A DNA stretch of 64,000 nt from Rhodopila sp. (GTDB lineage: Bacteria > Pseudomonadota > Alphaproteobacteria > Acetobacterales > Acetobacteraceae). The stretch covers positions 481,306 to 545,305 of the forward strand of contig NZ_CBDIBS010000004.1 in the NCBI RefSeq assembly GCF_965276935.1, written 5' to 3'. Every line of letters starts with the position of its first letter. The first letter of the stretch is position 1. Below the pieces are notes generated by a model. It saw only the letters and a program-made list of their open reading frames with translations. It was not told the origin of the DNA and ran no database searches. Shown piece after piece: positions 14,830 to 42,513 of the stretch. Made by a program: the position numbers and the translations under genes.

Positions 14830-15876
14830 TTACGGCAATGCATCAAGTTGGTCACACGCCCACTGTGCAGCATCGGCTACGACCAAATTGGGATCAGATC
14901 GGAGTGAAGCCGCCTGCACTCGGAGTGTTCGATCCCGTGAGTTACCGATTGCTATGAGAACGTTTCGAATGAATCGATCTCGTCCGATTCGTTTGATGGG
15001 CGAGCCAGTAAAGGTTGTTCGGAACGTTTCTTCAGTCAACGCCGACAGGCGAGCCAGATGTGGCGCGGTAAGGTCCGCACGCGCTATGATCTGTTCGTGG
15101 GAAGTGGCCGAGGCGAATCGGTTCCATGGACAGACAGCCAAGCAGTCGTCACAGCCGTAAATACGATTGCCTATCAGAGGTCGGAGTTCGTGGGGTATTG
15201 AGCCATGATGTTCGATTGTCAGATACGAGATGCACCGTGTCGCTTCAAGTTGGTATGGTGCTGGAAAGGCGTGGGTGGGACAGATGTCAAGGCAGCGTGA
15301 GCAAGAGCCGCAATGGTTTGAGGCGGCTTGATCTGGCTCAATTTCCAGATTCGTATAAACTTCGCCAAGAAAAAGCCATGAGCCATATGATCGTGATACA
15401 AGGTTAGTATGCTTCCCTTGCCAGCCGAGACCGGCGCTCTGCGCTAAAGGCTTTTCCATAACAGGCGCCGTATCGACAAAGACCTTAAACTCACATGAAA
15501 ACCGTGAAGCAATAAACTGCCCGAGATGCTTCAACTTTCCTTTGATAAGAGCATGATAATCTCGATGTCTTGCATAAACCGAGATTGCACCCTGGCTGGG
15601 TTTGGACAAGACTTCAAGCGGATCAGTCGCAGGCGCATAGGAAAATCCAACAACGATCACACTACGAGCGGCAGGCCAAAGGATTTGTGGGTCGCTTCTT
15701 TCGTCGATCCTGGATGCAAGCCAACCCATGTCCCCATGGTAGCCGGCTTGTACGAACGCTACGAGTCGGTCTCGTGCTTCCGACCCAAGGCGTGCAGGCG
15801 CAAAGCCGACGGCGTCGAATCCGATTGCGAATGCATGAGTGCGTATCATCGCCCGTGGATCAGCTTGTCCTGTCAC
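14830..15876 (-). CDS. queG: Epoxyqueuosine reductase
   Basis: [40 protein letters not shown] and CISYLT..IYGCDDC ferredoxin motifs. Confidence 0.95.
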
Positions 15877-15949
15877 GGGTGCTTCTTTTCAAGCCAAGCT
15901 GGCTGTCTAATGTCTTTTGGTCGGTATCGCCAGGGTGCAGCATTGAAGG

Positions 15950-16414
15950 TTAGCCTCTGCCACGGTAATTAGGAACATCCTGCGGCGGCACCCATACCTC
16001 TGACGGTGGTAAACCCGTTTGCCAAAAAATATCGATGGGTATTCCCCCTCTTGGATACCAGTATGCCCCTAGCCTTAGCCAGACAGGATTCAGAACTCCT
16101 ACCAGCCTGCCAGAGATTTCCATTGCGCAGGCTTCATGAAAGGCACCATGATTTCGATACGAGTTTAAAAACAGCTTGAGAGATTTACTTTCAACAATCC
16201 AGTTGTCTGGTATGTAATCAACGACAAGATGTGCGAAATCAGGTTGGCCAGTAATCGGGCAGAGGGAGGTAAACTCAGGACAAGTGAAGCGGACAATGTA
16301 ACGCAATCCGCTTGCGGGGTTCACAATGCGCTCAAGTTCAGATTGATCTGGAGTAGTTGGTTGTGGCGTGGACTTCCCAAGTTGCTTTAAACGGGGGGCA
16401 TCTTGTTCTTTCAT
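15950..16414 (-). CDS. queF: NADPH-dependent 7-cyano-7-deazaguanine reductase (type I)
   Basis: [24 protein letters not shown] and PRGGIPID. True start ATG 16414 lies 5 bp after the tgt stop. Confidence 0.95.
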
Positions 16415-16419
16415 ATGAA

Positions 16420-17556
16420 TTACTCCGACATTCTCCACGCGGTTCGGACACGCGCCGTATATGCTGTTAAGGTTCCTTCCTGGATCGACAGACGGAGGCC
16501 TTGCATAAGAGATTGGTAGTAGGTCAGATTGTGCCAAGTCAGCAGCATTGGCCCCAACATTTCTTGTGCCCGAAAAAGGTGATGTAGATAGGCTCGGCCG
16601 TGGCGAACACAAGCCGGGCACTGGCAATCTGGATCTAGTGGCTGAGGATCGGCAGCATAACGCGCGTTGCGCATGTTCCTAATTCCGGAGGATGTATAAG
16701 CTCTTGCCGTCCGCCCCGCTCTCGTTGGAATAACACAATCAAACATATCAATGCCGCGCTCGACGGCACCGACAATATCATCGGGTGTACCGACGCCCAT
16801 AAGATAGCGAGGTGCATCCACCGGGAGATTGGGCAATGTCACGTCGAGCACTGAGAGCATCGTCTTCTGTCCCTCGCCTACTGCCAGTCCCCCTATAGCG
16901 TATCCATCGAATCCAATGTCCTTCAGCACGTCGGCGGAACGGCGTCGCAGGTCGGGATAGGTGCTCCCCTGGACAATACCAAACAAGCTGTAACCCAACC
17001 GTACACGAAAAGCCCCTTTCGATAGACGTGCCCAACGCATTGATAACTCCATCGATGCTCGGGCTGTCTCATAATTCGCTGGGAATGCCGTGCACTCATC
17101 AAGCACCATGCTTATTGTTGCATCAAACATGTCCTGAAGTTGGATTGAACCCGCCGGCGTCAGACAATGTCGACTGCCGTCGATGTGAGATTGGAAATCC
17201 ACACCATTTTGATGAAGCTTCCGCAATCCGGCAAGGGACATGACTTGAAACCCACCGGAGTCTGTAAGAATAGGAGCCGGCCAATCCATGAACCGGTGAA
17301 GGCCGCCTTGAGAAGCGATACGGTCGGCACCGGGCCGTAGCATTAGGTGGTATGTGTTGCCGAGGATACATGTGGTTCCGGTATCTCGCACCGCGTCAGC
17401 CGTCATGGCCTTGACGGTGCCGGCAGTGGCAACTGCCATGAAGGCGGGGGTCTGAAGGCGTCCATGGGCTGTATGAAAAACGCCGGCGCGGGCACAACCG
17501 TCGGTGGCGAGCAACTGCAGGCGGGGCCCAGGCCGCAGATCAAGCGCAGATATCAT
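16420..17556 (-). CDS. tgt: tRNA-guanine(34) transglycosylase
   Basis: [43 protein letters not shown] and the CxCxxC...H zinc site. Confidence 0.96.
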
Positions 17557-17761
17557 GCGACGTGCGTATGACCATTGGCACAGTTTTGACAAGGGGCGCT
17601 AACGGTCTGGAGCTACAATATCAACTTAAATCCCGCAGCAGCACCGGTTGCATAACCCAGAATGACACCAGCGTCTGCCCTTGATCCACGACCGTCGGCC
17701 GGAGCCACATCGGCATTTGTCTACTCCTAGTGAAGATTTTTAGGTAGCTAGGAAGATTGGC

Positions 17762-26448: not shown

Positions 26449-26880
26449 ATGATGGCACTGACCACCTTTTCAATTGGACGCGACACCCAATTGGTTATCA
26501 TGGGACCGACGGGACGCATTGACATCAGCCACGTTACAGAGTTTGAAAGCCGTCAACTCACAGCAGCGGTTCGTGTAGCCCGGATTGATGGAACACAGCT
26601 CGCAGCGGAACTTCCAAAGGGTTGGGAGGGCACCTTTGAAGTGGAGCGAGGCACGTCAACGCTTGACGATTTTATAGCAACGCTGGAGCAGAATTACTAT
26701 AACGGCACTACCTCACAGTCCGGTACTATGTACCAGTATATTACCGAAAGTGATGGGTCGGTATCGACGTATCAGTTCATTGGCGTTGTCTTCAAGCTAG
26801 CCAGCGCGGGTGTTTGGAAGGGTGATGCAAGCGTCAAGCAGAAGCTTGATTTCTACGCAACTCAGAAGCAGAGGATTTGA
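26449..26880 (+). CDS. Tail tube protein
   Basis: 143 aa beta-rich protein (GWEGTFEVERG) directly after the sheath. Confidence 0.7.
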   Translation: MMALTTFSIGRDTQLVIMGPTGRIDISHVTEFESRQLTAAVRVARIDGTQLAAELPKGWEGTFEVERGTSTLDDFIATLEQNYYNGTTSQSGTMYQYITESDGSVSTYQFIGVVFKLASAGVWKGDASVKQKLDFYATQKQRI

Positions 26881-27239
26881 TGGAACCCACCAAGACAGTG
26901 CTAGCCGCCGCCGGTGCTCCGATTTCGACAACGGATAAGCAGGGTCGACACTTTCTGATCCGCCGGCCAACCGCGCTAGACACATTACGTCTCTTCAAGG
27001 TCGCGGGTCCTACGTTAGCCCAGAATGAGCCGTGGTTGGCGATGGCTAGTTTAGCATTTGCTGTCCAAGAGATTGATGGCATTCCAATTCCATCTCCTGT
27101 GTCTGAGAACCAGATTGAGCTTCTTGTCGATCGCCTGGGTGAGAATGCTCTAACAGTCATTGCTGAAGCGATTAACATCGCGGACGACGAGACTGATATG
27201 AAAGCTCAAGTGGGAAACTTGCCCGGCACCCCGTCCTGA
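26877..27239 (+). CDS. Tail assembly chaperone (gpG-like, short form)
   Basis: 120 aa after the tube gene, ending just past the slippery site G GGA AAC. Confidence 0.8.
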   Translation: MMEPTKTVLAAAGAPISTTDKQGRHFLIRRPTALDTLRLFKVAGPTLAQNEPWLAMASLAFAVQEIDGIPIPSPVSENQIELLVDRLGENALTVIAEAINIADDETDMKAQVGNLPGTPS

Positions 27240-27382
27240 TTGATTGCCTATACCTTGTGCGGCACGGGGTGCCATTTGATGTTGCCTTTTCTCTCTCAAG
27301 CGTAGAGAGAATGGCCTACGTAATTTCGCTCGGGACTCTACAAGGACATACCTTTGACTGGTCGACGTTCAACTGGGAGTAG
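27212..27382 (+). CDS. -1 frameshift extension of the tail chaperone (gpGT-like)
   Basis: GGGAAAC at 27212-27218. The -1 frame reads LARHPVLIDCLYLVRHGVPFDVAFSLSSVERMAYVISLGTLQGHTFDWSTFNWE to TAG 27380-27382. A perfect 10-bp stem 27225-27234/27264-27273 follows a 6-nt spacer. Confidence 0.8.
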   Translation, partial: GKLARHPVLIDCLYLVRHGVPFDVAFSLSSVERMAYVISLGTLQGHTFDWSTFNWE

Positions 27383-27426
27383 ACGCTCCAGCTGGTCTTT
27401 TCGAACATGGTCGCATAGCTGCCTTA

Positions 27427-29213
27427 GTGGCCGTTTACAAGCTCAGGCTAAACGAGCCAGTAGCCCGAAAGCCTGTTTGAATCGGTTTAACTTGCGGCGT
27501 CATGGATTGGCATTGGGTTGATCACAGCCTCGACGCCGGAGAGGATAACGGCGAACGTAAGGCGCGCGGCGGAAACGTCCAGGCGTCCGGCCCGGTCGCG
27601 CAGCAGCCCACCCCAGTGCACCAGCCAGCCGAAACTGCGCTCAATGACCCAGCGGCGCTTGAGCACGACGAAGCCCTGTTGGCCAGGATCGCGCGCGACC
27701 ACATGGTGGCGCATGCCATGCAGGTTGCACCATGCCCGGCAGCGTCCGGCGATAAAGGCGCCGTCAAGGATCACCGCGCGCAGGCTGGGCCGCTCTGCCG
27801 TGCCCGTAACGAGCGCCGGCAGCGTGTCGCGCGCCTGCGTCGAGGCTGGCACAACTGCGCTGGCGAGCCAGGTGCCGTCGGCATCGACCAGGGCCACGCG
27901 CTTGCGCCGCAGCACCTTCTTGCCGGCATCATAGCCGCGCGGGCCACGGGGACCGGGATGCACTTGACCGACTGGGTGTCGACGATGCCCAGGCGGAGCT
28001 CGGGCCGGCGACCCGCCGCACGGCGGCGCAGCCGGGCCACGTCGCACACCAGACGATCGAACAGGCCCAGCGCCAGCCAGCGGCGAAACCAGCTATACAC
28101 CGTCCACCAGGGCGGAAAGCCTCGCGGCAGCGCGCGCCAACTGCCGCCCACGCGCAAGTGCCAGGTAATCGCGTCAACCACCAGCGAAGCCGGCGTCGCG
28201 CGTTCACTGCGCGGCGGGTCGACCCGCTTCAGCCACCGCGCCACCTCTACGACCGTGCCGGCTGATACCCTTCGTTTCAGACCCGCCTCATGGCGTGCCC
28301 GATGCGCCTTGGTCCACGTCTTTGCTCCAACCCGCCTCCTGTCAGGCGGAGGCTCCCATCTTCAAGCCGTAGGGATGGGATCAAGGCGCATACAAATCAC
28401 TCAAGCAGGCTCTTAGTTTGCAACATGACACAGGCTTCATAAAAGAAGGCGGTGGCGGAGGTTACTATCCTTGAAGTGCTTGGCGAGGTGTTGGTTGCGG
28501 CTGATTCAGGCGAAGAAATATTTCACACTCAGCAGCGAGGCAGCACCTGGAAGCCTACCTGATCAGGCAACTTGCGCACGATCTCCATCACGATACCGAT
28601 AGCGGCCGCAACCTCCTGGCCGGCAAAAACACTGTCGGCAAATACCATCTTAACAGAGGAGAAGCGGGCCTGACGCGCCTCCAGCAACGCAAGTGCGCCA
28701 TCGCGGCCCTGAACCGAGGCCTCGCCTTCCACACCTCAAGGCATCAGCCATTGATATCCACTATGGCATGACGTTTGCGACCCTTGATCTTCTTGGCGGC
28801 GTCGTAGCCGTCCGGACCGTCGACCTAGGTTGTCTCAGCGCTCCGCATCTCGATGACTACTGGCTTGGACTTGCCAGCCGACCAGGTTGTTCCCGATCAT
28901 ACATGACCAAGTGACGATTCAGCCTCTTCTACAGTCCGTCGTCGCGACAGCGCTCGAACCGGCGGTATATCGTCTGGTGTTGCGGCAGCGTGCGCTATGG
29001 GATGCCGCTGTGCAGAACATAGAAGATCGCGTTGAACAATTCGCCCATTGCCTATGATCGATACCGGCCGGTTTTAGCGGGTGGCGGGAGGAGGGCGGAC
29101 AAAGCGCCTGCCGCACCACCTCGGCTTCAGGACTGGAAGGGTGTCTCGGCCTCTGAATTCGCGGTCCGATTCGAACTTCAACTACCCTTTCAGGGGGGTT
29201 CCGAGACAGACAC
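27427..29213 (-). mobile_element. Heavily decayed IS5-family element (outer, older); ends approximate
   Basis: Minus-strand fragments PPPAKTGR, ELFNAIFYVLHSG, GYDAAKKIKGRKRHAIVD, QGRDGA..VFADS and GFQVLPR, broken by several stops and frameshifts (about 28413-29150). Confidence 0.7.
27469..28412 (-). mobile_element. IS5-family element (inner, GC-rich) with frameshifted transposase
   Basis: Imperfect inverted ends AAGCCTGTTTGA (27469) and TCAAGCAGGCTC (28401-28412). The transposase is split over two frames: WRALPRGFPPW, IVDTQSVK, then GYDAGKK, ILDGAF, RRWVIERSFGWL. Shift near 27950. Confidence 0.85.
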
Positions 29214-29219
29214 TGAAGC

Positions 29220-30110
29220 ATGAACGAGGAGAAAGCCGCTTTGGAACATCCCTTAAACTCAAACCAAAGCCATATTAGGTGGGCTCTGACGCTACCAAGA
29301 GGCGGCTGGTCCTCACAACGCTCGTTTGCTCCTGTTCGCAAGTTGTCCCCAAGACTCTTTGCCACCGTCGTAGACCATTATCCGACATCCCGAAGTGCAA
29401 CCCTTTTTCATGACCACTTCTCTCGTCCAGGACGGACACGGACTGCACAATCCACGGCCTCGGCCAAGCTGAGAGACACCCGCATGGCTCACTCTGTTAG
29501 TCAAAGCGGCGATAGAGCACCATTTGTGGCATTCGCCGGCAGAACCGGCTGGATAAGTAACTGGACGTCATTGTCATCAGGGTCCAGAATAAAGCGGCAA
29601 CCGCAGCAAAGAAGTCCTTCTAAACAACCTTCCCATTTCTTTGCAGGATTACAGCAGATCCCATCTCAAAGACAATCGTCCCGGTTACAATCCCAGGTTC
29701 GGAGCCATATTGCGAAAGTCAGTAAAGCTACTCCAGTCGCGTCTGTAGCGCCAGCTTTTCGCGACGGGCCGGTCGACAAAGTAACAAAAGCAACCGCCAC
29801 TGGTAAAGATAAAGAGACCTCCGAGGCCGAAACATATCTTGCGGGACAAGACGGCCTGCACGTCCAACATCAATGGCAACAACGCGTCGTAGCAAGTCGA
29901 TTGGGGGCCACTCTCGACAGAGATCCTAAAAATGCGACAGACTGCCAGTTGGCTACAAATCCGCAGCAACCTACGCTACATCTTGACGGGGCTGCCTTAG
30001 GAAGATGGGCTGTTCAGCATTTAGAACGTGCCTTGTCTAAGCCAATAAATGGTATTACCGGCATTGATCCGCGAGCCACAGTTCCTCGAGGTTTTGTGTC
30101 GCCATTCTAA
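29220..30110 (+). CDS. Low-complexity protein in the tape-measure position, possibly 5'-truncated
   Basis: 296 aa, Ser/Gln/Arg/Pro-rich, with an ordered C-terminus LHLDGAALGRWAVQHLERAL..GITGIDPR. No clear RBS. Confidence 0.4.
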   Translation: MNEEKAALEHPLNSNQSHIRWALTLPRGGWSSQRSFAPVRKLSPRLFATVVDHYPTSRSATLFHDHFSRPGRTRTAQSTASAKLRDTRMAHSVSQSGDRAPFVAFAGRTGWISNWTSLSSGSRIKRQPQQRSPSKQPSHFFAGLQQIPSQRQSSRLQSQVRSHIAKVSKATPVASVAPAFRDGPVDKVTKATATGKDKETSEAETYLAGQDGLHVQHQWQQRVVASRLGATLDRDPKNATDCQLATNPQQPTLHLDGAALGRWAVQHLERALSKPINGITGIDPRATVPRGFVSPF

Positions 30111-36323: not shown

Positions 36324-36809
36324 ATGTCAACGCTCGCCACCCATATATGGAAACCAAGCCACGCTCGCTTGGTTATTATTGACTCATTCATACCAGTTCC
36401 CCGCGGCTCTGCTGCTGTGGCTTTGCCGCCCCTGAACTGGCCCACCAAGGATCCGGGTGACGTTCTCGATTACATATTCGATATAGCGCCGGCGATTGTC
36501 GGAAACGACGGCGATGGCATTGCCACATTGGACGTCAGCCTGGCGCCTTCTGCTCCCGGAGATCTAATGCTCCAGAGTATGACTGCCGACGGCAGCCGTG
36601 TCATTATCTGGCTTTCCGAGGGACAAGCGGGTACGATCTACACGGTTACGTTCATGATTAAGACGATCAACGGCCGATCCATACAACGAAGTGTTCTTCT
36701 TCCTGTTTTGATGTTGTCCTCACCCCCAATTCCAGCCAATGCCATTCTAGCTGCATCAGGCATCGTTCTAACCGATCAGAACGGCAATCCCATCGTAGCA
36801 AACGACTAA
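36324..36809 (+). CDS. Fibre-tail adaptor-like protein
   Basis: WPTKDPGDVLDYIFD motif and a beta-sandwich pattern, upstream of the large fibre genes. Confidence 0.55.
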   Translation: MSTLATHIWKPSHARLVIIDSFIPVPRGSAAVALPPLNWPTKDPGDVLDYIFDIAPAIVGNDGDGIATLDVSLAPSAPGDLMLQSMTADGSRVIIWLSEGQAGTIYTVTFMIKTINGRSIQRSVLLPVLMLSSPPIPANAILAASGIVLTDQNGNPIVAND

Positions 36810-36827
36810 GAGGTCGGCCTAAAGCCG

Positions 36828-36847
36828 GCCGTTTGCCTGCAAACGGC
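36828..36847 (+). other. Intergenic stem-loop between the adaptor and large fibre genes
   Basis: GCCGTTTG-CCTG-CAAACGGC perfect 8-bp stem, with no U-tract. Confidence 0.45.
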
Positions 36848-36903
36848 GAAAGTTTGGATCAAGCGCAACAGCATAATTAGGTCGCGCCGGAGAAAGATAA
36901 TCC

Positions 36904-39900
36904 ATGCCTACTATTGACGAGCTGGCCCCCGCGACATCAGCTTCAGATACAGACGAATTCATCGTCAGCCAGGCCGGTACCGCTAGGTCCATTTCCCGTT
37001 CACAGGTTTTGAACGGCGTGCAGACACAATTGGCGGTTCCGACGGGATCCTTGCTTGGTCGCATCAGTTCCGGCACTGGCTCGCCCGAAGTTATTTCTAT
37101 CGGACCAAACCTTAGCTTTAATGGTAGTACGTTGTCTGCTACGGCAACACCGTTTTTAATTGATGCGCTACAGAGTGGCTTGGTCCCGGCTTCTGGCGAT
37201 CTGCTGTCGATGTCGCAAGCCGGCACAAATGTAGCTGTAACCTACGGACAATTTTTGAACGGGTTTTCCGGCCTGTCTAATGTTAACATCTCACAAGCAC
37301 TTGTCACGCCAACTGGCTCAATGGGTAGTCAGACACTTGCCAGCCTGACGGCGAAGATCCTGCCAACTTCCGGAGGTAGCCTCACTGGTGCGCTTTCGCT
37401 TGCTGCTAATCCGACGCTGCCGACCCAAGCTGCCAACAAAGCATACGTGGATCTGCAAAATTCAAACGTACTTTCATTAACGGGCGGCTCATTATCCGGA
37501 ACCCTCTCTCTTTCCTCCACGCCGCAACAACCATTGCAAGCCGCGACGAAAGGATATGTTGACGCGGCGATTGCGATCACTCTACCCGCCACTGGAGGAT
37601 CGCTGTCAGGAGCACTTCTTCTGAATGCCGATCCTGTCACTACGTTACAGGCTTCAACAAAACATTACGCCGATCTTAAGCTTTCTCGAACCGGCGATAC
37701 ATTGGCCGGCGTACTAACACTTGCCGCTGATCCGATGCTGGCCTTGCAGGCGGCTACGAAAAATTACGTTGATACACAATTTGCAGCAGCTTTACCGAAA
37801 GCGGGGGGCACCCTGCTGGGCAGTCTGGCGCTGGCATTCGACCCAACCCTCAATGCGCAGGCGGCGACAAAACAGTATGTCGATCAGAGACTTCTTCGGA
37901 CCGGAGACACTCTTGCCGGCGCATTAGTACTCGCGTCCGATCCGGTCACAAGCAGCCAAGCGGCTACAAAAAATTACGTTGATACACAAAGTCTTGCCAG
38001 TGTATCGCGGGCTGGATCGTCAATGACAGGCTACCTACTGCTCGCCTCTGATCCCGCGCTCGCGCTTCAAGCATCGACGAAGCAATATGTCGACTTACGT
38101 GTCGCCCGCAATGGCGATACATTGACGGGAGCGCTGTATCTGGCTGCAAACCCGACTGCTCCCCTCCAAGCGGCTACAAAGCAGTACGTCGATGGACAGA
38201 CGGCGAATGCCCTGACAAGTGCGGGAGGAACATTTACCGGCTCGGTCTTACTGGCAAGCGATCCGCTGACTGCGCTTCAGGCTACTACAAAACAATATAC
38301 CGATGCTCGCGTTTTACGGGCCGGAGATACATTAACCGGCGCATTGGTTTTGGCGTCGGATCCCATCTCACCGGGCCAAGCGGCGACAAAGAATTATGTC
38401 GATATCCAACTGAGCAGCACGTTGCCGAGGACGGGCGGAACATTGAGCGGCAGCCTAACTCTTAATGCCGACCCCATCGCCGCCAGCCAAGCGGCAACCA
38501 AGCATTACGTCGACGCGCAGACATCAACCACATTATCCTTGCTGGGCGGGACCTTAACGGGTGCATTGTCACTGCTTACAGTTCCGACCCTTCCTACTCA
38601 GGCAGCGACCAAACAGTATGTTGATACACAAGTCGCTACCGCTTTGCCGGTTGCTGGCGGCTCGCTCAGCGGCATATTAAGCCTCGCCGGCGTGCCGACG
38701 TCACCCCTGCACGCAGCAAGTAAAGCATATGTCGATGCAAACCCTTCGTCAAATGGTGTCATTAACGTTGCGTTGGCGCCATATGGCGCCCTACTGAACG
38801 GAGTTGCGGATGATACCGCTGCCTTTAAAGCGGCGTACTTAGCAGCGCCCGCAGGATCGGCAATCTACGTTCCACATGGAACCACAGTGCTGCAGCAACC
38901 AGGCAGTTGGGGAATATCGCTGACAAAGCGGGTCAAATGGTTTGTGGACGGCACTACTCTGGCGGACGGAACACCTTTGGCATCTGCGGTCCCGTCTGGC
39001 GGTAACTTGGCCGAATTGGTCCTACCAGGTTTTGTTGTAGGCAACACGTCGACCAGCTTTTCGGTCTCGCAGGGAAGTTCCCAAGCGACTGATCTCGCTG
39101 TTCAACAGTCCGCCTATATCGTTAGCCACAATGGTGGAACAAATGGCGCGGTAGTGGCGAATGCCCGCGTCGACACCATTATCTACAATAGCCCTGCCAC
39201 CTATATATGGGGCGGCATCGATCGGCTCATTTGGGCGGGCATCCAAACTCCTGTAGCCGCTACTCCAGCCCAACATGTCGGGCGCTACATTCAGACGGTT
39301 CGCCAAGTCGTGGCAAATGGCACAAACGGACTGCCGCTCCCGCAACCTCAACTTTGGGCAGCATGTCTTGAATACCGCGATGCAACCGGCCTGCCCTCGA
39401 GTTCGGCAAATGCAGCATTAACAGTAGAGATGGACTGGTTTGGAAACGGTCTGGATGATGCAAACAGCCGAGCAATACAGAGTCTGGTCATTGGTCAGAG
39501 TAACACCGCTGGTGCGCCCGTTCAGGTTTCCACCATTATTGGGGTATCGCTAAGTGCCGGATCGTCCGGAAGTGCCATAACAGTCTTCAAGGTAGACGTT
39601 CCCTTCTCGAACGCTGTTTTGGACACCACAAATGCAGCGCAAGTAGGTTCTGCACCCGTCATCAAGATGTCTGCTGGTCAAGCAATTGCGTTCGAGGGAT
39701 CCAACTCCTGTAGGCTTTTTTACGACAATACGACCAACACGAATGGTTCGCTGAAATGGACTACTGGATCTACAACATGTGTCGTTGGGAAGGGAATTTC
39801 AGTTGGTTGGGAAAATGTTTTTGCCACATCAAATTCCATACCAGCTTCTATCGCAGGTAATATTCTATTTCTTGTAGGCGCAAGTGCTTACACTTTAACT

Positions 39901-40296
39901 TTGCCTGCGGCTTCAGCGGTAGCCGCGGGTACTGGATTTACCTTTTCTGCCCTTGGAGCTGGAGCAGTAAGTATAACACCGGCGGGCACCGACGGAATTG
40001 ACTGTGGCCCAGTAGTCCTGAGAACCAACGACAGGTACCATCTTGTCTCCGATGGATCATCAAGCTGGCGTGAAGTCTTTAGGACCAATGCTGTTGGTCC
40101 GAAGTGGACCGCTCCTCCTGTTTTACCGTCATACACGGTTGCGACACTTCCGACAGGTCAAACGGCGGCGGGTCAAGCTTTTGCTACGAATGGCAGGAAG
40201 CCTACCGAAGCAGCCGGCACGGGAACTGGCGTGCAGGTATTTTTCGACGGTCAACACTGGATCTCCTGTTGTAGCGGAGCCGTGGTGGCTGCCTAG
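36904..40296 (+). CDS. Large repeat-containing tail fibre/spike protein (1130 aa)
   Basis: 13 fibre repeats, then a pectate-lyase-3-like entry motif VINV..YGA..NGVADDTAAF..IYVPHG. Confidence 0.75.
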   Translation: MPTIDELAPATSASDTDEFIVSQAGTARSISRSQVLNGVQTQLAVPTGSLLGRISSGTGSPEVISIGPNLSFNGSTLSATATPFLIDALQSGLVPASGDLLSMSQAGTNVAVTYGQFLNGFSGLSNVNISQALVTPTGSMGSQTLASLTAKILPTSGGSLTGALSLAANPTLPTQAANKAYVDLQNSNVLSLTGGSLSGTLSLSSTPQQPLQAATKGYVDAAIAITLPATGGSLSGALLLNADPVTTLQASTKHYADLKLSRTGDTLAGVLTLAADPMLALQAATKNYVDTQFAAALPKAGGTLLGSLALAFDPTLNAQAATKQYVDQRLLRTGDTLAGALVLASDPVTSSQAATKNYVDTQSLASVSRAGSSMTGYLLLASDPALALQASTKQYVDLRVARNGDTLTGALYLAANPTAPLQAATKQYVDGQTANALTSAGGTFTGSVLLASDPLTALQATTKQYTDARVLRAGDTLTGALVLASDPISPGQAATKNYVDIQLSSTLPRTGGTLSGSLTLNADPIAASQAATKHYVDAQTSTTLSLLGGTLTGALSLLTVPTLPTQAATKQYVDTQVATALPVAGGSLSGILSLAGVPTSPLHAASKAYVDANPSSNGVINVALAPYGALLNGVADDTAAFKAAYLAAPAGSAIYVPHGTTVLQQPGSWGISLTKRVKWFVDGTTLADGTPLASAVPSGGNLAELVLPGFVVGNTSTSFSVSQGSSQATDLAVQQSAYIVSHNGGTNGAVVANARVDTIIYNSPATYIWGGIDRLIWAGIQTPVAATPAQHVGRYIQTVRQVVANGTNGLPLPQPQLWAACLEYRDATGLPSSSANAALTVEMDWFGNGLDDANSRAIQSLVIGQSNTAGAPVQVSTIIGVSLSAGSSGSAITVFKVDVPFSNAVLDTTNAAQVGSAPVIKMSAGQAIAFEGSNSCRLFYDNTTNTNGSLKWTTGSTTCVVGKGISVGWENVFATSNSIPASIAGNILFLVGASAYTLTLPAASAVAAGTGFTFSALGAGAVSITPAGTDGIDCGPVVLRTNDRYHLVSDGSSSWREVFRTNAVGPKWTAPPVLPSYTVATLPTGQTAAGQAFATNGRKPTEAAGTGTGVQVFFDGQHWISCCSGAVVAA
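37372..38742 (+). repeat. 13 tandem 33-37 aa repeats G(G/D)TLTG.L.L..DP...QAATK.YVD
   Basis: Counted directly in the translation. Includes a 29/30-nt identical pair at 37750-37779 and 37960-37989. Confidence 0.9.
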
Positions 40297-40338
40297 GGTT
40301 CTCCTCAAAGCCGAAAACAAGTATCAGAAAGTAGTTTG

Positions 40339-42513
40339 ATGCCTACAATTTCGCAGCTTCCAGCCGCTGCTTCAGTTGCACCTGCGGACGAGATGCCGAT
40401 AAGTCAAGGTGGCAGCCTCTGCGCCGTATCTGTTGGGGCACTGCTGGCTTCCGCGCAACCGGCAATTTCGATTCAATCATCTGCGCTACTTGGGCGAACC
40501 AGTTTGGGTTCCGGCGGACCCGAGCAGATTGATGTTGGCATTGGACTTACGTTGTCCGGGGGAACGGTCGTCGCCACTGGGGCCGATCATGCAGCTTATC
40601 CTTCGACCTCAAGTTTCGTGCTTAAATCTGATTTGGTGATATCCAGTCAGGGAAGTCAGATGCTCATGCCGACCGAGTTCCTCCGTGAGCTCTTTTCGGC
40701 GGGGCAGAATGTGACCATTGATGGTAACGGTGTAATCTCAAGCGTTACAGGCGGCGCCTCCATCTCGCCCGTTTTGCTTGGTAGCGCCATCGGTGCGCTG
40801 GAAGTTATTTCGTCCTTGGCCGTCGGTGATCTCATTCCGATAAGCCAATCCGGGGCTGATCATGCTATCAAATATGCGGACTTTTTGAACGGTCTTACTA
40901 TTGATCAGGCTCCGTCGGCCCTGCCTGCGTCTAATTCGGATAGGTTGTGGGTTGCGCAAGACGCCAACACCATGGGAAGCCAGAGTTTCGGCGCCATATG
41001 GGCATGGATTTCCAGCCAAATGCCCGGCTACACGATACCTGTAGCTGAGATCACCGTAAGCGTTGGCCTGAATGCCATCGGACATAACGGGCGCATTCTG
41101 GTCTGTAGTCAGCCGGTGACACTAACGCCTCTTCCCGCACAGATGGGAGACGGATTTCAGTGTCAAGTCATTAATGTCAGCAGTGGGAACGTGACGCTTG
41201 GCTCCGGCGTTCTTACCTCGAGCGGAGGCAACATAATTGGGCCACAGCAGTCGGCCGTTGTTCAATGCTTCACGTATTCAGCGGGTACAGTTGTATATGC
41301 TTTAATGTCTCAGGCCTCTGTAGCGGTTGCCATACCGGGTCAGGTAACTGGATTGGTTGCTTCAAGCGTGTCCGCTACAGCCGTAACTTTGTCATGGCAG
41401 ACGCCATTAATCGGTGGCTACCCCTCAAACTACTTGGTGTTCTACAGGCAAACTGGGTCTTCTGGCTGGATCGATAGCCCTAGTGCGATAACAGGAACGA
41501 GCTCTCAGCTAGCCAATCTTCAAGCTGGAACGAGCTACGACTTTCAGGTGCAGGCGGTCAACGGGAGCGGTACGGGAATTGCGTCGCAAAGCTTGACTGC
41601 GTCAACGACAACGGTGTCCGCATTACCGCTCCAAGTACCAGCCCAAGTTACTGGCCTTGCGGCATTGACAGCATCGAGCACAAGCGTACAGCTTTCTTGG
41701 TCTGGGCAAACAGGAAGTAATGCGGCTGCTACTTATTCTATTCAGTACAGGATTACAGGATCTACATCGTGGACGTCGTCTGTATCTGGAATTGCTGGAA
41801 GCAGCTACGGCGTTACTGGCTTACAAGCTTCTACCGGCTACGACTTTTCAATTTTTGGAGTAAATACGGGTGGGGCGGGCTTGGCCTCAGTCGTGGTATC
41901 GGTTACGACTCCGGCTGCTCAACTTTTGGTACCAGGGCAAGTGAGCAATTTTGTAGCGTCGGTCACATCTAGTATTGCCATTCTGCTTTCCTGGTCCACC
42001 CAAACTGGGCCAAATGCCTCAACAAGTTATACAGTTCAATATCGGATGACCGGATCCGCTGCCTGGACATCATCCATCGCCGGGATCGTCGCAGTCAACT
42101 ACAATGTCACAGGTTTACAGCCCTCAACCAGCTATGACTTCTTGGTGTTCGGCGTTAACACGATTGGCGTGGGACCAAGTTCCTCTGTGACCTCAGCTGC
42201 CACGGAGGCAATTGGAACTCCCGTTTCATCAGTAACTTGGAATTTGGGGCCGAGCGGACCTTATACACGCGGCAATGGCACAGTTGCGCTCAATGCTTTT
42301 ATCTCGCCAGCCTCTGCGCCAGTGCAATTTGGTCTGTCTACATCAACTACGATTGAGCCTACTTCCTGGACCGTTGGCCAGTCTATTAATAATACCGCCC
42401 TTTGGGGCGCCTACGTGCCAACCCCGGCTATAGCCGGACGCTGGTATGCCTGGGTAGAGGGCACTGATGGTAGTAGTCCGGCTGTATTCGCGGCGTCATT
42501 CATAGTCCAGTAG
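40339..42513 (+). CDS. Fibronectin type III repeat fibre/adhesin protein
   Basis: Three FN3 repeats (PGQVTGL..LSW..Y.V.YR.TG..W..GL...T.YDF.V..VN) at about 41332-42200. The N-terminus is homologous to the 36904 protein. Confidence 0.8.
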   Translation: MPTISQLPAAASVAPADEMPISQGGSLCAVSVGALLASAQPAISIQSSALLGRTSLGSGGPEQIDVGIGLTLSGGTVVATGADHAAYPSTSSFVLKSDLVISSQGSQMLMPTEFLRELFSAGQNVTIDGNGVISSVTGGASISPVLLGSAIGALEVISSLAVGDLIPISQSGADHAIKYADFLNGLTIDQAPSALPASNSDRLWVAQDANTMGSQSFGAIWAWISSQMPGYTIPVAEITVSVGLNAIGHNGRILVCSQPVTLTPLPAQMGDGFQCQVINVSSGNVTLGSGVLTSSGGNIIGPQQSAVVQCFTYSAGTVVYALMSQASVAVAIPGQVTGLVASSVSATAVTLSWQTPLIGGYPSNYLVFYRQTGSSGWIDSPSAITGTSSQLANLQAGTSYDFQVQAVNGSGTGIASQSLTASTTTVSALPLQVPAQVTGLAALTASSTSVQLSWSGQTGSNAAATYSIQYRITGSTSWTSSVSGIAGSSYGVTGLQASTGYDFSIFGVNTGGAGLASVVVSVTTPAAQLLVPGQVSNFVASVTSSIAILLSWSTQTGPNASTSYTVQYRMTGSAAWTSSIAGIVAVNYNVTGLQPSTSYDFLVFGVNTIGVGPSSSVTSAATEAIGTPVSSVTWNLGPSGPYTRGNGTVALNAFISPASAPVQFGLSTSTTIEPTSWTVGQSINNTALWGAYVPTPAIAGRWYAWVEGTDGSSPAVFAASFIVQ

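Follow-up and report, generated by a model that had tools for sequence, protein, structure and literature searches.

A short cassette near the 3' end of a putative phage tail-assembly-chaperone gene is very probably a programmed -1 ribosomal frameshift site of the gpG/gpGT type. It lies in a 64,000-nucleotide (nt) stretch of a Rhodopila sp. genome (contig NZ_CBDIBS010000004.1, forward strand, positions 481,306 to 545,305); we call the whole of this stretch the window. The cassette combines a slippery heptamer, G_GGA_AAC, a 6-nt spacer, a hairpin and an overlapping -1 open reading frame (ORF), and it would join the 0-frame ORF, G, to a C-terminal extension, T (Table 1). The comparison of 166 related loci carries this interpretation: the heptamer (G_GGA_AAC, or A_AAA_AAC in distant ones), the spacer length, the register of the stem and the -1 peptide are all kept.

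The cassette and its conservation in relatives

The G codons at the site read GTG (27210), GGA (27213), AAC (27216) and TTG, which puts G_GGA_AAC in phase 24 nt ahead of the G stop codon. The two arms, GGCACCCCGT and ACGGGGTGCC, are fully complementary over 10 base pairs (bp) and enclose a loop of 29 nt. From the heptamer, the -1 frame is open up to the TAG at 27380-27382, a run of 56 codons that includes GGG AAA and adds 54 new residues. CUU would be the first codon read after a tandem slip, and the fusion would count 113 + 54 = 167 amino acids (aa), next to a short product of 119 aa. A sequence-only reading of the window had described the heptamer in the correct X_XXY_YYZ phase, a 6-nt spacer followed by a perfect 10-bp stem (27225-27234/27264-27273) and an open -1 frame of 54 codons. 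We found each of these in place, and its estimate of products of about 120 and 168 aa agrees with the lengths that we computed.

We asked how often such an arrangement arises by chance. The window contains 258 XXXYYYZ heptamers on its two strands, and only the one at 27212-27218 has a perfect stem of at least 9 bp starting 4-9 nt downstream. In first-order Markov random sequence, 0.025 cases of a heptamer with a 10-bp stem are expected per 64-kilobase (kb) strand. The arrangement of the cassette is not explained by chance.

The related loci were gathered from genomes, metagenomes and IMG/VR. Of the 166 loci overall, 134 were evaluable; the distinct sequences number 97 or 124, depending on the analysis. 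GGGAAAC is in phase in 132 of the 134 evaluable loci, and GGGAAAT is found in one more. The Gly codon of the heptamer is GGG and the Lys codon AAA in 97/97 distinct sequences. All evaluable loci have a -1 frame that is open for 56-64 codons and encodes GKLARHPVLIDCLYLVRxGVPFDVAFSL..., so that the heptamer and the -1 frame, the two elements that the sequence-only reading had said to look for in homologues, are both retained. The cassette is also present in 11/11 genomes checked from other genera of the host family. Even in distant homologues, where G is only 27-35% identical, A_AAA_AAC (AAT once) stands at the same place and the hairpin, its spacing and its register are kept.

The T peptide (LARHPVLIDCLYLVRxGVPFDVAFSL...FDW..W) is kept in all relatives, and in the same-genus relative T is 82% identical versus 57% for G. 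Substitutions in the 24-nt overlap alter the residues of the 0 frame and leave those of the -1 frame untouched: GNLPGTPS, GNLRGTPF and GNSPGTLS in the 0 frame all match one invariant GKLARHP in the -1 frame. Third positions of the -1 frame have entropies of ~1.6-2.0 bits at four-fold sites and ~0.9-1.0 at two-fold sites, meaning that they are essentially saturated (97 distinct sequences). With a conserved peptide over saturated synonymous sites, the -1 ORF is, by this comparative measure, protein-coding.

Stop codons in relatives bracket the place of the shift. A -1-frame stop sits 3 nt before the heptamer in some relatives, and a 0-frame stop follows immediately 3' of it in 30/97 distinct sequences. 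Between the upstream stop and the heptamer, 87 of the 97 have no -1-frame start codon. As judged from these stops, the frame switch is confined to ~10 nt centered on the heptamer; together with the scarcity of upstream starts, this leaves the -1 ORF reachable only by frameshift.

The relatives with a stop right after the heptamer make up about a third of the family (L038, L046-L058, L104, L112-L139 and L141-L150). They have the form G_GGA_AAC_UGA or UAA, or A_AAA_AAC_UGA in distant relatives; their short product ends at the slip site, with a stop codon in the A site after the slippery codons.

Constraint on the hairpin RNA

Against the saturated background of the -1 frame, entropy drops to 0-0.08 solely at GGG AAA in the heptamer, at Arg xGG and His CAC in arm 1, and at Gly GGG and Val GTG in arm 2. 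In arm 2, Gly is GGG in 95/95 and Val is GTG in 97/97 sequences; elsewhere in the -1 frame, Gly, Val, His and Arg are encoded by all of their synonymous codons. The 0-frame stop precedes arm 2 in every sequence, and in one third of them it precedes arm 1 as well. Thus, overlapping coding cannot account for the frozen sites.

The conserved pairing is the one that we read in the window. For this stem, 95.2% of cells are paired versus 39-52% when the partner is slid, and RNAalifold independently predicts the same 9-bp stem. Spacer length is invariant and without indels in 124/124 distinct cassettes, while spacer sequence is variable. Pairs 2-7 are paired in all of the 124 distinct cassettes; at pair 7, a C.A mismatch occurs in two more sequences, which the peptide filter had removed from this count. 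Pair 9 is G:C in 80, G:U in 14 and A:U in 3 of the 97 sequences and is never unpaired.

The sequence-only reading had suggested covariation of the stem in homologues as a check, and such covariation is found. Pair 9 shows a compensatory transition from G:C to A:U. Two compensatory transversions, G:C to C:G at pair 2 (L160) and C:G to G:C at pair 3 (the L161 clade), are independent changes in distant homologues, in an otherwise invariant core. At pair 3 of the L161 clade, arm 1 has Asp GAC in place of His CAC, and arm 2 compensates with a synonymous switch of Val from GTG to GTC. Nearly all single changes in the stem are C to U opposite G. Such changes are tolerated only in sense-strand RNA, which points to an RNA structure and not a DNA palindrome. 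By this pattern of substitution, the hairpin is under selective constraint as sense-strand RNA.

Other signals were searched for as well. A pseudoknot is not indicated: loop and downstream codons vary normally at synonymous sites, with merely two extra stem pairs. An upstream Shine-Dalgarno-like stimulator is not conserved, an SD-like 4-mer being present in 19/97 sequences. Rfam gave no match at E <=1 within 27100-27450. Taken together, the comparisons support nucleotide-level purifying selection on the heptamer, the stem and the -1 frame across a large family.

Table 1. Positions of the cassette and of neighboring features in the window
Feature	Position	Strand	Remarks
Chaperone 0-frame ORF, G	26880-27239	+	ATG 26880 to TGA 27237-27239; 119 aa; phrog_20383, E=6.5e-17
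Slippery heptamer G_GGA_AAC	27212-27218	+	X_XXY_YYZ phase read from the sequence
Spacer TTGCCC, 6 nt	27219-27224	+	
Hairpin 5' arm (arm 1), GGCACCCCGT	27225-27234	+	Conserved core 27225-27233
Hairpin 3' arm (arm 2), ACGGGGTGCC	27264-27273	+	Conserved core 27265-27273
-1-frame extension, T	27218-27382	+	Adds 54 residues past the slip; TAG stop at 27380-27382
Tail sheath gene, 520 aa	24878-26440	+	phrog_23, E=1.1e-52; weak Pfam sheath domains
Tail tube-like gene, 143 aa	26449-26880	+	phrog_12993 (unknown function), E=4.7e-42; function suggested by position
Probable 5' remnant of tape-measure-like gene (tentative), 24 codons	27354-27426	+	TTG start; overlaps the end of T
Nested pair of IS5-family insertion sequences	27427-29213	-	Outer, decayed (27427-27466 and 28440-29213); inner, intact-looking (27467-28439)
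Tape-measure-like gene body, 296-aa ORF	29220-30110	+	Aligns to residues ~37-324 of 323-345-aa homologues
queG, queF-like gene, tgt	14830-17592	-	Immediately left of the phage-like block

Proposed mechanism and alternatives

The position and the predicted fold of G suggest that it acts as a tail assembly chaperone. Gene order around it is sheath (phrog_23), tube-like gene, G/T, a tape-measure-like protein of 296-345 aa, and baseplate genes. The tube-like gene, with the sheath gene on one side and the chaperone gene on the other, shares 79% identity with its counterpart in the same-genus relative; the putative tape-measure gene is so called for its position only. Databases hold at least 239 homologues of G, nearly all of 119 aa and none above 64% identity, and list them as 'hypothetical proteins', which agrees with the claim of the sequence-only reading that ORF annotation misses the long product. 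Among 50,697 GenBank phage records, a tblastn search found nothing that matches G. An AlphaFold model of G, made with 37 homologues, reached a pLDDT of 82.7. In Foldseek, its sole meaningful PDB match was 2OB9, the HK97 tail assembly chaperone (probability 0.99, TM 0.51-0.55, 105/119 residues).

We propose that the majority of ribosomes would read 26880-27239 to its stop codon and so make the 119-aa G protein. In a minority, a 9-10-bp G+C-rich hairpin that begins 6 nt downstream, at the mRNA entrance, would cause a pause while tRNA-Gly occupies the P site (GGA) and tRNA-Asn the A site (AAC). The two tRNAs would slip back one base in tandem, so that tRNA-Gly now pairs with GGG and tRNA-Asn with AAA, and reading would go on in the -1 frame to 27382. 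The resulting 167-aa GT protein would consist of the G domain and the 54-residue T domain, with G and GT produced for tail assembly at a fixed ratio. If lambda and P2 are a guide, G and GT may coat the tape-measure protein while the T domain recruits tube subunits. We infer slippage itself, its efficiency and the stimulatory role of the hairpin, the last from the position and conservation of the stem.

Several observations weigh against this interpretation. The match to 2OB9 has 16% identity and a marginal Foldseek E-value of 0.036, and a PDB sequence profile search with G returned nothing relevant. Pfam gave no match for G, T or the tape-measure-like ORF, leaving G in no named chaperone family, and phrog_20383, which G matches, is without functional annotation. 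The fold of the 89-nt region has a z-score of -1.43; its centroid (-23.1 kcal/mol) includes the stem. The fold energy alone is thus unremarkable, and the case is carried mainly by the comparison with relatives. The hairpin loop is large, at 29 nt, and a local 5-bp hairpin, GGCAC-GGG-GTGCC (27261-27273), may compete for arm 2; it forms only where Arg-His (CGG CAC) precedes Gly-Val and is not conserved. Frameshifting in lambda G/GT reportedly needs no downstream structure, so that a stimulatory role of the stem is not obligatory. In addition, the pair of insertion sequences (IS) starts 45 nt past the -1 stop and lies between the cassette and the body of the tape-measure-like gene. Lastly, E. coli shifts poorly on X_XXA_AAC (PMC5009743). 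In favor of the interpretation, the high shiftiness that A_AAG has in this species has been tied to its single Lys tRNA (PMC5009743); the host of the cassette has one tRNA-Asn(GUU) and both tRNA-Lys(UUU) and tRNA-Lys(CUU), and on this ground we think that the use of AAC fits.

A terminator was also considered for GGCAC-GGG-GTGCC and the T-rich tail behind it. Neither the upstream GGCAC nor this tail is conserved, and on that ground we rejected it.

The IS pair splits the tape-measure-like gene, so the current function of this copy is uncertain. The inner IS has a two-ORF DUF4096/DDE_Tnp_1 layout and 67% G+C and is single-copy in the genome. The outer IS has 58% G+C; within ~270 codons, its transposase contains four or more in-frame stops as well as an extra frameshift. 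Its right end was fixed by comparison with a second genomic copy, and its left end at 27427 was likewise compared; part of it resembles C2:427235-427590 at 72-78%. Upstream of the pair, the peptide of the probable remnant (..STGSRRSS..) resembles ..SSGNRRAS.. of L003, and in relatives the tape-measure-like ORF begins 19-48 nt before the T stop. Downstream, the C-terminus HLDGAALGRWAVQHLERALSKP..G.TG.DPRA is conserved. Reconstruction of the empty site from the boundaries (TTA | IS | TGA) gave no continuous frame from the remnant at 27354 to 29220.

The proteins in the tape-measure position (e.g. L002 4460-5455) are 296-345 aa long, low in complexity and rich in Arg, Ser and Pro. They are nearly unalignable except for a short N-terminal motif and a strongly conserved C-terminal block of ~45 residues. 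Since tape measures are as a rule long and helical, these proteins are unusual ones.

The split gene raises an alternative that we consider unlikely but that deserves a hearing: the cassette may be intact in sequence yet a relic here, the tail module having been disabled by the IS and the signal being neither used nor selected. The pair comes after the T stop and before the body of the next gene, and it is absent from the same-genus relative. The tape-measure-like gene is short of ~25-40 N-terminal codons compared with its homologues, and the overlap of the T and tape-measure ORFs, which means translational coupling in relatives, is lost. However, the outer IS is itself decayed, while ~7,500 codons of the phage-like block around the cassette are undisrupted, collinear and full-length compared with the same-genus relative. 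Provided that the IS arrived intact, selection on the block thus seems to have continued after the insertion. Moreover, the ATG at 29220, a few nt past the end of the IS, opens a 296-aa ORF that retains the conserved parts, and we found no terminator-like site within the IS pair on the + strand. The sequence-only reading had taken the retained parts as a sign of ongoing selection for tail assembly; this holds family-wide and is uncertain for this copy, given the IS pair at 27427-29213.

A different possibility is that ribosomes do shift at the heptamer while the inverted repeat is neutral or serves another role, in RNA stability or processing or as a protein-binding DNA palindrome. The lambda precedent of shifting without a downstream structure and the long loop would fit such a role, and the arms encode conserved residues, RHP and GVP. 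Yet the frozen positions are synonymous sites, so that protein constraint does not explain them, and the 6-nt distance to the heptamer never varies, even when the heptamer changes. Single changes are sense-strand G.U wobbles and double changes are compensatory, which fits RNA pairing and not two half-sites; arm 2 is far from any gene start, and the terminator-like match at 27261-27273 rests on non-conserved bases. We regard this explanation as quite improbable. We give hardly any credence to the absence of recoding altogether, with G and T made separately from an internal T start or the long product made by transcriptional slippage. GTG 27257 does open a 41-aa ORF in the -1 frame, but the peptide is conserved from the heptamer on, 15 codons ahead of this codon, and the same 87/97 relatives without an upstream -1-frame start speak against it, as does a heptamer frozen in the exact X_XXY_YYZ phase. 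RNA polymerase slips on longer homopolymers than the three G and three A found here, which counts against the transcriptional route. Thus, a programmed -1 shift at the heptamer, with the hairpin acting as an RNA element, remains our preferred interpretation.

Known systems, the surrounding cluster and significance

The cassette very probably belongs to the known gpG/gpGT kind and is unusual mainly in its clearly constrained hairpin and in its AAC A-site codon. Like lambda gpG/gpGT and its counterparts in long-tailed phages (Levin 1993; Xu, Hendrix and Duda 2004; reviewed in PMC5009743), it has two overlapping ORFs between the tube and tape-measure genes. In both cases a -1 slip on X_XXY_YYZ near the end of the first ORF gives, or would give, short and C-terminally extended products. 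The lambda heptamer is G_GGA_AAG; its first four bases are shared with the cassette, whereas the A-site codon is AAC (Asn) in the window and AAG (Lys) in lambda. The hairpin at 6 nt is strongly selected in the window, while lambda is reported not to need one. In addition, the T extension of the window has merely 54 residues, and G is without sequence similarity to lambda G.

With P2 gpE/gpE+E' and Mu-type systems, the cassette shares a contractile-tail context, in the order sheath, tube, chaperone, and a short -1 extension of ~50 aa. It differs from them in its heptamer and in the unusually short (~300-345 aa), low-complexity tape-measure-like gene, and there is no detectable sequence relationship and no Pfam chaperone family. 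HK97, whose chaperone 2OB9 is the best structural match to the G model despite 16% identity, is a siphovirus. P2-like phages shift 2-3 times more efficiently than lambda (PMC5009743).

The heptamer itself has been described elsewhere. G_GGA_AAC is the g-t shift site of the haloarchaeal virus HCTV-1 and is among the most shift-prone heptamers on mammalian ribosomes (PMC5009743). HCTV-1 g-t and eukaryotic RNA viruses have a heptamer identical to that of the window, but here the host is bacterial and the stem is a simple hairpin that gives no hint of a pseudoknot. Like the cassette, E. coli dnaX and IS911-type sites combine a heptamer, a 5-8-nt spacer and a stable stem-loop. They differ in that their heptamer is A_AAA_AAG, often with an upstream Shine-Dalgarno-like stimulator, while the window has no conserved upstream element.

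The cassette is part of a 24.6-kb block (17916-42513) with TerL, portal, scaffold-like, capsid, contractile-tail and fiber genes; we recognized no integrase, repressor, replication or lysis genes in this block. It is flanked by tgt/queF/queG on one side and ABC-transporter genes on the other. The same-genus genome is collinear, and divergence is comparable inside and outside the block: host flanks are 58-77% identical and block genes 44-82%. G homologues occur in 92 of 201 genomes of the host family (~45%), nearly always as a single copy, and the locus of the block is not conserved across the wider family. IMG/VR records of the cluster are 22-33-kb 'proviruses' or fragments, and integrase is absent in 12 records. 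The cassette may therefore belong to a vertically inherited, structural-genes-only, contractile-tailed cluster, either gene transfer agent (GTA)-like or otherwise domesticated, a suggestion that we make tentatively and hold to be rather doubtful.

The proteins of the fiber region (36324-42513) include one of 161 aa with a Gp77 fiber-tail adaptor domain, one of 1130 aa without Pfam match and one of 725 aa that has three fibronectin type III domains.

In six genomes (the window, the same-genus relative, L001, L003, L004 and L005), tgt lies 9.2-9.5 kb upstream of G. We rejected tgt adjacency as a general trait: it fails in L002 and in 19 other genomes of the family and is thus a clade-specific synteny, not a family trait. 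Two tgt genes are present in a genome labelled Acidobacteriaceae, and one of the two is beside the cluster. In the closest clade, tgt, queF and queG are the conserved left neighbors of the cluster. More speculatively, AAC is read by queuosine-modified tRNA-Asn, and the efficiency of the shift could depend on Q34 status. The link between tgt, Q34 and tRNA-Asn may be coincidental.

The finding leaves the known picture unchanged, because the gpG/gpGT shift is textbook biology. It assigns a probable function and a second, predicted and so far unannotated 167-aa product to a 'hypothetical' 119-aa family with at least 239 database clusters, present in about half of the genera of the host family. It also provides an unusually clean natural bacterial -1 signal, with a hairpin visibly under RNA-level selection and a register kept across A_AAA_AAC as well as G_GGA_AAC. 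As a case of an Asn AAC codon in the A site, in a host with two Lys tRNAs, the cassette would be useful for studying how tRNA repertoire and queuosine affect the choice of slippery site. The surrounding cluster, possibly a domesticated particle, may merit a study of its own.

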